Shown piece by piece: positions 4,344 through 20,532 of a stretch of DNA of 64,000 bases; position 1 is the stretch's first letter, and each line of letters begins with the position of its first letter. This stretch comes from Bacteroidia bacterium (GTDB lineage Bacteria > Bacteroidota > Bacteroidia > M30B66). The stretch is taken from contig OZ257142.1 of NCBI GenBank assembly GCA_965279035.1, forward strand, positions 2,464,001 to 2,528,000, read 5' to 3'. A model generated the notes under the pieces. The model searched no databases and had not been told where the DNA came from. It saw only the letters and a program-made list of their open reading frames with translations. The translations under genes and the position numbers were made by a program.

Positions 4344-4432
4344 GATGTGCTGGTAAATATTGTGCTTATGTGCTGATTATCCTGATAGCTATCCGGAGAA
4401 GTGCTGATTGAAAATGTGCTGATTTGCTGATT
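4343..4432. repeat. Degenerate TGTGCTGA(T) short-unit repeats
   Basis: Several TGTGCTG/TGCTGATT units, the same motif as at 19424-19514. Confidence 0.7.
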
Positions 4433-17065: not shown

Positions 17066-18205
17066 ATGAAGTACCTCGTTCATCTTTGTCGCACACTTGT
17101 TGGCGTTCTTTTCATAATTTCTGGCTTAATCAAATCGAACGATACCATTGGTTTCGCCTATAAACTCGAAGAATATTACCAAGTTTTTGGTACAGAGTTT
17201 TTGATTTCATCGGCTGTATATCAAGCAATGGCTATTTGCATTGTTGAAGTAGTTTTAGGTGTCATGTTATTATTAGGATACCGTAAAAAACTCACTCTGT
17301 TTCTCTTAATGGCAATGATTGTGTTTTTCACTTTCCTAACATTTTACTCAGCCTACTTCAACAAAGTAACCGATTGCGGATGTTTTGGAGATGCGCTTCA
17401 CCTTACTCCTTGGCAATCTTTCGGAAAAGATGTTGCTCTTTTGATTTTGATATCAGTCCTTGTTGTTGGCAGCAAACACATTCAACAATTATTCAGCAAT
17501 AAAGTAACACTCGGCATTCTCTCAATTGCCTTGATTCTCAATATTGCATTCCCAATTTATACATACAATTATTTACCGGTGAAGGATTTCCGTCCTTATG
17601 CTATTGGCAACGATATCATTGAACAAATGAATGGTGGTCGCCCCGGGAAATTCGATACACGTTTTGTTTATAAAAATCTTCAAACCGGAAAGGATGAAGA
17701 AATGGCTAAACCGCCTTATACTGATACGATTAACTGGGAAATCGATACGTTAAAATGGAAGTTTGTCGATACAAAACAAATAGTTCTCGATCCAGGTGAG
17801 CAAGCTCCAATTCACGATTTCAGTATTAGCAGTGTCGAAGGTTCAGAATTCACTGATGATTTCTTAAAACACGACAGTCTGCATTTCTTCCTTGTTAGTT
17901 ATGATTTAACAAAAGCAGATCGAGGCGTACAACCTCAAATTAATGCATTCGCGCAAGCTTGTGAGAAAAACGGAATTCCATTCATCGGCTTATCTTCTAG
18001 CACACCTGAAGCAATCGACGAATTCCGCCACGAAGTACAAGCTCCTTACGATTACTACATTACCGACGCCACCCAACTAAAAACCATGATCCGCTCCAAT
18101 CCAGGACTCATGTTACTAAAAGGCTCTAAAGTCCTTGACATGTGGCATTATCACAGCTTTCCAAGCTTTGAAGATTTTAGAAAGAAATATCCTTCAAATA
18201 AGTGA
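17066..18205 (+). CDS. DoxX family (BT_3928-like) membrane protein
   Basis: FIISGLIK.ND..GF..KL.EY, DCGCFGDA, RSNPGL. Confidence 0.88.
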   Translation: MKYLVHLCRTLVGVLFIISGLIKSNDTIGFAYKLEEYYQVFGTEFLISSAVYQAMAICIVEVVLGVMLLLGYRKKLTLFLLMAMIVFFTFLTFYSAYFNKVTDCGCFGDALHLTPWQSFGKDVALLILISVLVVGSKHIQQLFSNKVTLGILSIALILNIAFPIYTYNYLPVKDFRPYAIGNDIIEQMNGGRPGKFDTRFVYKNLQTGKDEEMAKPPYTDTINWEIDTLKWKFVDTKQIVLDPGEQAPIHDFSISSVEGSEFTDDFLKHDSLHFFLVSYDLTKADRGVQPQINAFAQACEKNGIPFIGLSSSTPEAIDEFRHEVQAPYDYYITDATQLKTMIRSNPGLMLLKGSKVLDMWHYHSFPSFEDFRKKYPSNK

Positions 18206-18230
18206 TGTGTATTCTAGGACTTATGCAAGT

Positions 18231-19211
18231 CTATGCAGCGTATTTTTTTAGATCAACATAGGGTGTTTTTCTTTTTACGACAGCAAATACTCTTGATACA
18301 AGTTTGTTTTTGACTGCATTGAGTGCACAATTATAATGTTTTCCTTCCTGGATTTTACGCTCCATATATTCTCTCATTTCGGTGTTATTTAATACTGCCG
18401 AACGCGCCGCCATTGTTAATACTCCATTGATTTTTCGATTTGATCTTCTATCGGTTTGTGTTTTCCCTTTTATGGATGTTCCTGATGATTTTTCGAATGG
18501 AGCTATTCCACTATAACATGCATATTGACGAGCATTGTCGAAGTATTCAAAGCCATTTGTTGTGGCGATTAAATACCAACTCGACACTGGTCCAACTCCT
18601 TTTATAGATTGAACTAATTCGTCGATTTGACGAAGATTATCATCTGACTTTATCAATGATTTGATTTCCTCTTCTACCAGTTTAAGTTTATCGTTAAAGG
18701 TCTTTAACAGATCCGTTTCGATTTGAAAAACTATATCTACACCAGTGGTTTTTGATGAGTTCTTAAGTCTGTTTTTGATGCCTATCTTCTCTTTTTCCAG
18801 ATGCGAACGCATACTCAAGAGCTTTCTCAGCTGCGCTACAGCACTCTTTGATAGTACCGTTGGGCTAAGCTGTTCTGCATGTAATGCAATGAAATTTGCG
18901 ATTCTTTGGGAGTCTATCTTATCATTTTTGCCTCGCTGAAGTCCAATAGAATACTTAATGTTTAAGGAGGATTCCATGTAAAAACAGATCTTCTTTTCAC
19001 TCAAAAACACAGATAAATCCTCGCTATAAATACCCGTATGCTCAAAGCAAATGGCCATCGATTTTACACTCACTTTCAACTGCTTTAACCAAGCAAGCAT
19101 CAGTGTATAACCATCGATATCATTGCTAAAGACGTTGTGCTGAGATTGATTATGTAAATAAACATCCAGCGTTAATTTTGACACATCAATGCCAATAAAG
19201 TTCTTCTTCAT
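18231..19211 (-). CDS. IS110 family DEDD recombinase/transposase
   Basis: FIGIDVSK, CFEHTG, KNDKID (DEDD tetrad), SIKGVGPVS, YSGIAP...SSG, NAVKNKL. Confidence 0.95.
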   Translation of the reverse strand: MKKNFIGIDVSKLTLDVYLHNQSQHNVFSNDIDGYTLMLAWLKQLKVSVKSMAICFEHTGIYSEDLSVFLSEKKICFYMESSLNIKYSIGLQRGKNDKIDSQRIANFIALHAEQLSPTVLSKSAVAQLRKLLSMRSHLEKEKIGIKNRLKNSSKTTGVDIVFQIETDLLKTFNDKLKLVEEEIKSLIKSDDNLRQIDELVQSIKGVGPVSSWYLIATTNGFEYFDNARQYACYSGIAPFEKSSGTSIKGKTQTDRRSNRKINGVLTMAARSAVLNNTEMREYMERKIQEGKHYNCALNAVKNKLVSRVFAVVKRKTPYVDLKKYAA

Positions 19212-19224
19212 ACTTTTGTTTTTA

Positions 19225-19407
19225 AGTGTTGCTCTTGGCTAAAACCTTTAATAGATCTCGAAGTCTAAAATTCTAGCTGGCCATTAACAACATGGTTAAA
19301 GGAAACGGGGACTCATACACACCTTAGGGATTTAAAGACCTAGCTGATGAGATAGTTCACCCCGTTTCTTTGTTTATTTTCAGTCAAGATATCTCAACTA
19401 AAATAAT
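19225..19407 (-). ncRNA. Putative IS110 bridge RNA (target-binding and donor-binding loops); ends approximate
   Basis: Stem 19298-19310/19360-19371 encloses target-matching segments at 19343-19349 and 19318-19321. A second loop holds donor-matching segments at 19270-19276 and 19244-19250. Confidence 0.75.
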
Positions 19408-19423
19408 AGTGCAAGTCTAAAGG

Positions 19424-19514
19424 CTGATGTGCTAGTGTGCTGATGTGCTAGTGTGATAGTGTGCTGGTTTGTTATCCTTATCAGCACATTAGCACATAAA
19501 CTAATTAGCACATT
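19424..19514. repeat. 8-bp-period tandem repeat with inverted arm (long hairpin)
   Basis: CTGATGTG/CTAGTGTG units; 19428-19443 is the reverse complement of 19481-19496 with one mismatch. Confidence 0.85.
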
Positions 19515-20532
19515 ATTTAAGTTTCGCTTCCAACACTCTGATCTCTCTTGAAGGAGAACCTCCTTCATAAAGGATGCGGTGGACAAAATCGCAAATCGGT
19601 AAATCAACTCCTAGGCTTTTGTTGACCTCGTTGAGTGAATGAACTGCGTAAAAACCTTCGGCGATCATATTCATCTCGAGCTGTGCCGATTTAACGGTAT
19701 AGCCTTTTCCAATCATCTGTCCGAAAATACGGTTACGACTGAATTGTGAGTAGGCAGTTACGAGCAAATCTCCCAAATAGGCACTTTCGTTTAAGTCGCG
19801 ATTGACATTAGGAACGGCTGCATCGAGAAAACGCTTCATTTCCTGCATGGCATTCGAAACCAGAACTGCTTGGAAATTATCCCCGTAATTCATCCCACGA
19901 GTAATACCAACCGCCAACGAAATAATATTTTTCATAACCGTTGCATATTCAATGCCTTGTACATCATTCAAAATCGTGTGTGTATGAATAAACCGACAGT
20001 TGAGAATATGAGCCATGCGTAAAGCCAATTCTTCATTCACTGCCGAAACGGTCAAATAGGATTGTCGCTCCAAGGCAACTTCTTCGGAATGACAAGGACC
20101 GGCGATAATACCCATTTGTTTTGGGTGAATGCCAATGCTTGTATGCAGGTAATCAGTAATGATTTCGTGTCTTTCGGGAATCATGCCTTTGATGGCAGAG
20201 AATACCGATTTTCCATGAAATGCATCTTTAGATAAACCCGACAAGGTTTGATGCACAAATGCAGCAGGCAAAGCCAAAATGATCATTTCCGAACCAGCTA
20301 TAACGGCTGATAAATCGGAGGAGGGATGCACTTTGTTCATGTCGAGCTGAATATCGCTCAGATAGCGCGGATTGTGTGAAAACTGCGCAATGTGCTGTAC
20401 TTGCTCTTCCGAACGCATCCACCAATGAACATGAATGGGACGTTCGTTTAAGATTTTAACAATGGCTGTAGCCCAACTTCCTGCACCTATTACGGCAACC
20501 GAAGGCATATGAGCAGATGGTTGATCGCTCAT
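19513..20532 (-). CDS. gpsA: NAD(P)H-dependent glycerol-3-phosphate dehydrogenase
   Basis: GAGSWATA, AIKG, GPCHSEEV, KNI, GDLLVTAYSQFSRNR. Confidence 0.95.
   Translation of the reverse strand: MSDQPSAHMPSVAVIGAGSWATAIVKILNERPIHVHWWMRSEEQVQHIAQFSHNPRYLSDIQLDMNKVHPSSDLSAVIAGSEMIILALPAAFVHQTLSGLSKDAFHGKSVFSAIKGMIPERHEIITDYLHTSIGIHPKQMGIIAGPCHSEEVALERQSYLTVSAVNEELALRMAHILNCRFIHTHTILNDVQGIEYATVMKNIISLAVGITRGMNYGDNFQAVLVSNAMQEMKRFLDAAVPNVNRDLNESAYLGDLLVTAYSQFSRNRIFGQMIGKGYTVKSAQLEMNMIAEGFYAVHSLNEVNKSLGVDLPICDFVHRILYEGGSPSREIRVLEAKLK

Follow-up and report, generated by a model that had tools for sequence, protein, structure and literature searches.

The IS110-group element and its insertion site

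The window considered here (the whole stretch of DNA analysed, 64,000 nucleotides) carries, between the convergent genes gpsA (19513-20532) and a gene of the BT_3928 family (17066-18205), a whole insertion sequence of the IS110 group that is read on the minus strand. Its gene, its ends and its insertion site are listed below; a point within a motif sets off the core, and LTG stands for the left target guide described in the next section.

18209..19422, minus: whole IS110-group element, 1214 bp, by the top-strand definition, from CTTTAGAC... to ...CCTAGAATAC; junctions read directly
18231..19211, minus: recombinase gene, 326 aa (Pfam PF01548 and PF02371; alignment to 8wt6_A and 9t56_A)
19423..19431, minus: left target and target core, CACATCA.GC; 8/9 match to LTG CUCAUCAGC, 7 contiguous
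19418..19422, minus: right donor half (RD) CTTTA, left end of the element (sequence read)
18211..18217, minus: left donor half (LD) CTAGAAT, right end of the element (sequence read)
18209..18210, minus: donor-derived core AC (uninterrupted sister sites; AC at both junctions in relatives L019 and L031)
18204..18208, minus: right target half (RT) ACATC (sequence read)
19423..19515, no strand: array of 8-mer repeats (AGCACATN) supplying the target (Tandem Repeats Finder, period 8/16)

Both Pfam domains of the family were recovered in the predicted protein, DEDD_Tnp_IS110 (PF01548) at 2.5e-16 and 60.3 bits against a curated cut-off of 29, and Transposase_20 (PF02371) at 2.2e-18 and 66.8 bits against a cut-off of 21.3. 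The only solved structures that matched, over residues 4-318, are the recombinases of ISCro4 (E 1.6e-25) and IS621 (E 1.5e-22, 83.8 bits), and in the alignment to the IS621 chain 8wt6_A the residues D9, E57, D97, D100 and S243-G244 align with D11, E60, D102, D105 and S241-G242 of IS621, a correspondence that was counted by hand, the chain index of 8wt6_A being the native numbering plus 2. Mutating these IS621 residues abolishes recombination, as described in PMC11208158. A first-pass annotation, made from the letters of the window, had called this an IS110 recombinase, and with both the DEDD and the Tnp domain present and all five IS621 catalytic residues kept, this identification is upheld. 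The closest relatives are found in Bacteroidota MAGs, and the closest plasmid-borne ones in Chryseobacterium, Chondrinema, Flavobacterium and Spirosoma, where the annotation reads just 'IS110 family transposase'. The T9SS is typical of Bacteroidota; because the window encodes T9SS type A and type B sorting domains as well as the BT_3928-family neighbour, we likewise agree with the assignment to a Bacteroidota host.

The gene is flanked by a non-coding left end of 211 nt (19422-19212) and a right end of 22 nt (18230-18209), and the ends of the element are identical in relatives despite different flanks. At the left junction, host sequence ...CACATCAGC ends at 19423 and is followed by CTTTAGAC, which can also be written as ...CACATCAGC meeting CTTTAGACTTGCAC between 19423 and 19422. 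The right end closes with ...GTCCTAGAAT (18211) and is followed by ACACATCAC, the junction being ...GTCCTAGAAT.AC/ACATCAC with AC at 18210-18209. A 3-bp inverted repeat, GAC at 19417-19415 and GTC at 18220-18218, surrounds the 14-bp donor; inverted repeats of this short, sub-terminal kind are known in the IS110 group (PMC11208160). A 13-mer of the left end was found in the window only in the element itself, apart from one chance match with 2 mismatches, and the 111 matches of a 14-mer of the left end in viral contigs, none of which stands beside a recombinase homologue, were set aside as chance.

The insertion lies 4 nt behind the BT_3928-family gene, which is unbroken, and the right target half overlaps the stop codon of this gene (TGA 18203-18205, plus strand). 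Target-like words occur 17 times in the window where 5.0 were expected. A second intergenic array of the same 8-mer (AGCACATN, period 8/16), with AATCAGCACAT-type words, is present at 4344-4432 and is unoccupied, and comparable arrays flank the relatives in genome G003 and at loci L002, L169 and L170. These arrays look like a Bacteroidota repeat family that the lineage of the window element uses as a landing pad.

Two-loop layout and guide segments of the left end

The left end would encode a bridge RNA of about 175 nt, in which a 5' hairpin precedes one loop for target binding and one for donor binding. Its structural parts and guide segments, all on the minus strand, are as follows.

19378..19403, minus: 5' stem-loop of 11 bp ahead of both guide modules (minimum-free-energy and centroid folds)
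19298..19371, minus: target-binding module, with outer stem AAAGAAACGGGG (19371-19360) / CCCCGTTTCCTTT (19310-19298), internal loop and hairpin
19343..19351, minus: left target guide (LTG) CUCAUCAGC, same sense as left flank and core, with CATCAGC at 19349-19343
19325..19342, minus: inner hairpin of the target-binding loop (UAGG...CCUA), helix 2, with both-side changes in 3/4 pairs
19317..19323, minus: right target guide (RTG) GGUGUGU, antisense to AC.ACATC of the right junction, including one G.T wobble
19315..19316, minus: handshake dinucleotide AU, complementary to left donor half positions 6-7 (AT)
19228..19291, minus: donor-binding module, with outer stem 19291-19280 / 19239-19228, loop and TAGA..TCTA hairpin 19267-19252
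19270..19276, minus: left donor guide (LDG) CUAGAAU, identical to the right end 18217-18211
19244..19250, minus: right donor guide (RDG) UAAAGGU, antisense to AC.CTTTA, the word formed where the ends join

A 5' stem-loop is also described for IS621-type RNAs (PMC11208160). Every coordinate previously given for the stem, CATCAGC, the TAGG..CCTA hairpin, CTAGAAT, the TAGA..TCTA hairpin and TAAAGGT proved correct on the minus strand. The right target guide, which had been described as TGTG, needs amending: its position (19321-19318) is right and its length of 4 nt is not, these letters sitting within the 7-nt GGTGTGT (19323-19317) that is followed by the AU of the handshake. Taken together, this guide and dinucleotide (GGUGUGU then AU) are complementary to AT.AC.ACATC of the right junction. 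The complement of the right donor guide, ACCTTTA, had been said to arise only from joined ends, and this is what we find, since the integrated left junction reads GCCTTTA and the word forms only when AC (18210-18209) joins CTTTA (19422-19418). Between the left donor guide and the core there is no pairing, UU standing opposite AC. In 200,000 shuffles of the 205-nt interior of the left end, the four guide words arose singly in 0.7%, 2.3%, 2.3% and 17% of cases, the three 7-mers arose together once and all four words together never (0/200,000).

Folded as a single sequence, the RNA has a minimum free energy that is not significant against shuffles (z = -1.36). No Rfam family matches it: eight weak matches, all far below the gathering scores, are microRNA and snoRNA models placed on a flanking repeat hairpin, and Rfam holds no bridge-RNA family. 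Relatives were therefore collected, using one scan of species genomes, the three genomes behind the loci so found, 400 genomes of the same class and one metagenome scan. A homologue with 32-41% identity is present in 34 of the 400 same-class genomes, and the metagenome scan, run with the donor-loop pattern, gave five complete close relatives. Using a covariance model (R1) built from six close sequences, with the structure specified by us, a full-length match was obtained directly upstream of the gene in all 31 loci searched (E <= 5e-4). Loci L003, L033, L035 and L043 stand outside these 31, having exceeded the E-value limit in an earlier search; L004 and L005 were replaced by L170, and L022 (genome G097) was left out of the R1 search and of all guide, donor and core counts.

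In the 31-locus R1 alignment, 91.0% of cells are paired against 62.4% in shuffled alignments, and 29 of 30 pairs carry changes on both sides; these pair counts come from an alignment fitted to R1, which favours the structure, and the margin is nevertheless large, with every helix contributing. Helix 1 has both-side changes in all of its 11 pairs and 93% of its cells paired over the 31 sequences, and helices 3, 4 and 5 have them in 15/15 pairs. Covariation scores 0.784 in this alignment; shuffles score 0.238, with 0/500 as high as the alignment, and slid controls, where partners were moved by 1-3 columns, score at most 0.197. Support for the fold thus comes from covariation and not from energy. 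Folding and covariation across homologues had been named as one way to check the two-loop layout, and the layout is kept, with compensatory changes, in the 31 loci. In the window, the outer target stem contains one A.C mismatch (19369/19301), at a place where relatives have G-C.

The consensus fold from RNAalifold also contains a 10-bp helix between the two strands of the donor loop (LDG:RDG). This helix was rejected: its cells are 68.7% paired against 69.8% in shuffles, it shows no covariation and 489 of 500 shuffles score as high.

Guides, flanks and core in the relatives

The donor loop is identical in the window element, L001, the G003 copies and L168-L172, and the target loop varies with the flank in these elements, as listed here.

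Window, L170, G003: LTG CAUCAGC with left flank CATCAGC or TATCAGC; RTG GGUGUGU or AGUGUGU with right junction ACACATC or ACACATT
L001, L171, L172: LTG AAAUAGC with left flank AAATAGC or GAATAGC; RTG AGUGUGU with right junction ACACATT or ACACACT
L168: LTG UCAUCUAUC with left flank TCATCTATC; RTG UAAAUGU with right junction AC.ATTTA
L169: LTG AAUUAGC with left flank CATTAGC; RTG GAUGUGU with right junction ACACATC

Within the second group, L001 combines the guide AAAUAGC with the flank AAATAGC, and L171 and L172 combine AGUGUGU with the right junction ACACACT; the flanks of L001 and L172 are homologous and may represent one insertion event.

For a family-wide test, junctions were placed from the donor-loop guides only and the target-loop guides were then scored. 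At right target positions 10-14, cognate guides match 4.22 of 5 positions and non-cognate guides 1.44 of 5 (27 elements); at left target positions 1-7 the values are 5.6 and 2.8 of 7 (20 elements). In both cases 0 of 20,000 permutations were as high, and these results were unchanged after collapsing identical guides. Failure of the loop segments to co-vary with insertion sites in homologues had been put forward as the observation that would count against guides; the segments do co-vary, for both target halves. A few elements depart from the rule: L020 and L045 match at 1/5 and L021 at 3/5 right target positions, L016 and L026 match at 4/7 left target positions, L019 requires a 1-nt bulge, and L034 matches at 2/7 left target positions in the registers allowed and at 8/8 one position over. 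The left target score of 2/7 in L021 is expected because its left flank is another right end, and the right flank of L045 is another element's left end. In L020, a same-sense GGCGCAT stands 12 nt farther into the right flank, and the 9 nt matched by the left guide are those that precede an additional AC; this may reflect an irregular insertion or a different register.

The donor-loop guides follow the ends of their own element. The 7-mer of the left donor guide is found in the right end in 28 of 31 cognate pairs against 29 of 800 non-cognate ones, with nine 7-mer types among the 31 sequences; target-loop segments differ in nearly all elements. The complement of the right donor guide is found in the integrated left end in 14/22 cognate and 12/350 non-cognate pairs, and the eight misses include the five members of the window lineage, in which the ends must be joined to create the word. 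Elsewhere the right donor guide changes with the left end, as in the five copies of genome G358, which start ATTTACA (ACATTTA) and carry UAAAUGU, or in L016, which starts CCTTAGG and carries UAAGGGA. In 26 of 30 elements the handshake dinucleotide fits positions 6-7 of the left donor half, 21 of them combining AT with AU and 5 AA with UU, and it covaries family-wide, ...GAAT going with AU and ...GAAA with UU. On the donor-loop side the handshake is weak, position 7 matching in 11/21 cognate against 142/420 non-cognate pairs.

The loop segments could in principle act at the level of DNA, for instance as protein-binding sites formed by internal copies of the ends, or belong to a regulatory structure in the 5' UTR, with no guide RNA involved. 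The donor-loop segments are indeed conserved in the way of protein-binding sites, and the consensus fold pairs the donor-loop strands into the 10-bp helix. This helix, however, lacks covariation whereas five others covary as RNA, the target-loop segments change with host DNA that lies outside the element, and one segment has the sense of the flank and the other is antisense to it, as in IS621, so that we consider such an explanation extremely improbable. The fold established by covariation, the covariation of guides with flanks and the catalytic residues, like the sequences themselves, are observed here.

Several side observations were made on these loci. In L021 (about 2170-2200, locus minus strand), the left end is directly preceded by a right end, ...ATCTTGGAAT.GC.CTTTAGTTCG; this arrangement is a tandem copy or an assembled circle junction, with one 2-nt core between the ends. 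In L045, CTTTAGTTGAG, which resembles another element's left end, begins directly behind the right end ...CATAGAAA.TC, and the recombinase frame contains an internal TGA. Multi-copy relatives were found in complete genomes, with five copies in G358 (L024 and L046-L049) and four in G220 (L027 and L050-L052), whose right ends are much longer, about 160 and 230 nt respectively from the stop codon to the terminal TAGAAT.

At the core, the window reads GC at the left junction and AC at the right one, so that the two junctions do not share an identical dinucleotide in target and donor and only position 9 (C) is common to both. The same holds across the window lineage, where 12 left junctions carry GC (11) or TC (1) and none AC, and all 13 right junctions carry AC. 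Among the 21 elements with both junctions, from which L021 and L045 were left out, each having another element's end as one flank, the junctions agree at position 9 in 20 cases and at position 8 in just 9. The left target guide always carries the base of the left junction, and the right target guide always carries the base of the right, donor-derived junction. AC is taken to be donor-derived because uninterrupted sister sites within the flanking DNA of L169, L170 and L172 have ACA immediately after AGC; the target is therefore CATCA.GC.ACATC and the donor CTAGAAT.AC.CTTTA. The target and the donor (CCTAGAAT.AC.CTTTAG) reconstructed in the first-pass annotation are the same ones. Other registers were tried in search of a shared dinucleotide: CA/TA, with a left end starting GCCTTTAG, fits L001 and not the window, and CT and AG fit neither.

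Alternatively, the AC that follows GAAT might be host flank, in which case the target CATCAGC/ACACATC and the donor CCTAGAAT/CTTTAG would share no nucleotide. The window alone is ambiguous on this point, as in its array CAGC is followed by ACAC, and if wobble pairs are allowed the guides can be drawn either way. Against this, the sister sites read AGC then ACAT or ACACT with no extra AC (an array of AGCACATC in L170, GAAAAAGCACACTT in L172, and the site in L169), L019 and L031 carry AC.CTTTAG on the left too, UAAAGGU is a perfect complement only of AC.CTTTA, and in L021 a right end is joined to a left end via one 2-nt core. A host origin of AC is thus distinctly unlikely, and we keep AC as part of the donor.

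With AC derived from the donor, the core pattern fits inheritance of the top strand's version. Top-strand inheritance is implied for positions 6-7 in what the IS621 papers describe, and a 2026 preprint argues for it from single-strand excision (10.64898/2026.08.31.748434). It is possible, at somewhat less than an even chance, that this Bacteroidota clade has a shared core of only one nucleotide, position 9 immediately before the top-strand cut, with position 8 set separately in target and donor as a third handshake-like position; we offer this as a reading to test and not as a finding. In the window lineage, the right target guide ends in a 3' U that can form a wobble pair with G of the target ahead of exchange and a regular pair with A of the donor once exchange has taken place.

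Mobility, mechanism and relation to known bridge-RNA systems

In sequencing run X1, which is probably the source, the element forms one unitig (18206-19426) with a depth of 748 against 205-219 in its flanks (about 3.5 times), a unitig depth that is not a copy number; there is no variant position inside, and other flanks join at 18203 and 19428. The depth and the alternative flanks suggest several identical copies and recent movement of the element. Among contigs aligned to the window, no circle junction joining a right end to a left end was found. A wastewater contig (X6) runs from 18192 to 19425 through 10 different letters, at about 88% likeness; it is a relative without the element at the locus, but not a clean empty site.

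The only record from an RNA library is a 170-nt contig from a lake metatranscriptome (run X24), which may hold DNA. It covers 19200-19368, comes from a relative with 6 differences, spans almost exactly both guide modules and stops at their ends, and gives a weak hint of transcription of the RNA. A sigma-70 scan of the integrated sequence gave five sites where 4.3 were expected, none placed to drive the RNA, with a consensus that does not cover Bacteroidota promoters. The -7 promoter consensus of Bacteroidota is TAnnTTTG; TAAATTTG in L001 (about 1325-1345) and TATATTTG in L168, both just upstream of the target module, resemble this box. The window lineage is without such a -7-like box and has a different 5' hairpin instead.

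The element might be a genuine bridge-RNA IS110 that is now inert at this locus, either with its RNA unexpressed or disabled by the A.C mismatch or the unequal cores, the matches of the guides then recording a past insertion. The sigma-70 scan without a suitable promoter and the mismatch at 19369/19301 would agree with this, and IS621 itself is described as expressing its RNA weakly from integrated copies and excising inefficiently (PMC13626964). However, the ORF is full length with all catalytic residues, the X1 unitig stands at about 3.5 times flank depth with no internal variant and with other flanks at both ends, and the GC/AC type of arrangement is present in every copy of the lineage that was read and is therefore compatible with transposition. 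We regard an inert element as unlikely. As to the 'intact RNA-programmable recombinase' first proposed, intactness appears sound from the sequence and the probable several identical copies in X1; production of the RNA, its binding by the protein and the chemistry would follow by homology.

The match of the handshake and the sub-terminal GTC/GAC repeat lead us to take the model of IS621 as the working model, and the element is very probably a Bacteroidota insertion sequence of the IS110 group that operates in the manner of IS621. [quoted passage not shown] By analogy, the DEDD/Ser recombinase of the window would cut and swap top strands just after core position 9, the AU after the right target guide would pair with the incoming donor bases AT as the handshake, and the natural target would be the intergenic array of AGCACATN repeats.

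Like IS621 (Escherichia coli, structures 8WT6-8WT9), the element combines a RuvC-like DEDD domain with a Tnp domain carrying the catalytic Ser-Gly. Further likenesses to the published description of IS621 are an RNA encoded in a long left end (here 211 nt, against a right end of 22 nt), a 5' hairpin ahead of two loops, of which the target loop is variable and the donor loop conserved, a left target guide in the sense of the left target with right target and right donor guides antisense to the respective right halves, two handshake nucleotides behind the right target guide, a 3-bp inverted repeat around the donor and insertion into a repeated intergenic sequence. By contrast, the present element is distant in sequence (83.8 bits, E 1.5e-22) and comes from a different phylum, its natural right target guide has 7 nt against 4 paired nt reported for IS621 (PMC11208158), only position 9 (C) is common to target and donor where IS621 is described with CT in both, and the left donor guide is without pairing to the core. 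As to the promoter that IS110-group elements would rebuild across their joined right and left ends, the sigma-70 scan covered the integrated sequence and gave sites at chance level. The recombinase of ISCro4 (PDB 9t56) is the best match among solved structures (E 1.6e-25, residues 4-318) and has the same motifs, a comparison of proteins only. The IS1111 group, in which the bridge or 'seek' RNA lies in the right end, shares the recombinase family and the guide logic, as described in PMC11208160; in that description its RNA is downstream of the gene, within a long right end, and its sub-terminal inverted repeats are of 7-17 bp, whereas in the element studied here the RNA is upstream, the right end has 22 nt and the inverted repeat 3 bp.

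Bridge RNAs have been predicted for 85.7% of IS110-group elements, according to PMC11208160, so that this element, a clean but ordinary example of the recently discovered bridge-RNA recombinases, is a well-documented addition to the group and overturns nothing known. In a literature search combining bridge RNA, IS110 and Bacteroidota, no native Bacteroidota bridge RNA was apparent from titles and abstract openings among the matches listed; the orthologues tabulated with PMC11208160 may already cover this clade. What the element adds is that the bridge-RNA scheme of IS621, handshake included, can be read straight from sequence in a distant Bacteroidota clade that numbers at least 31 loci in this analysis, all of them without an Rfam match. 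Also gained are an RNA model supported by covariance and a natural series of re-targeted guides on one scaffold, and the native pair of recombinase and RNA could be tried as a tool in Bacteroidota. The natural junctions, with their differing first core base, bear on how strictly cores must match and on which strand's version survives: the presence, in all copies read, of the target's base at the left junction and the donor's at the right would be a natural record of top-strand-only inheritance, and if the core is a single nucleotide, target and donor would need no shared dinucleotide, which would relax a design rule of bridge editors.
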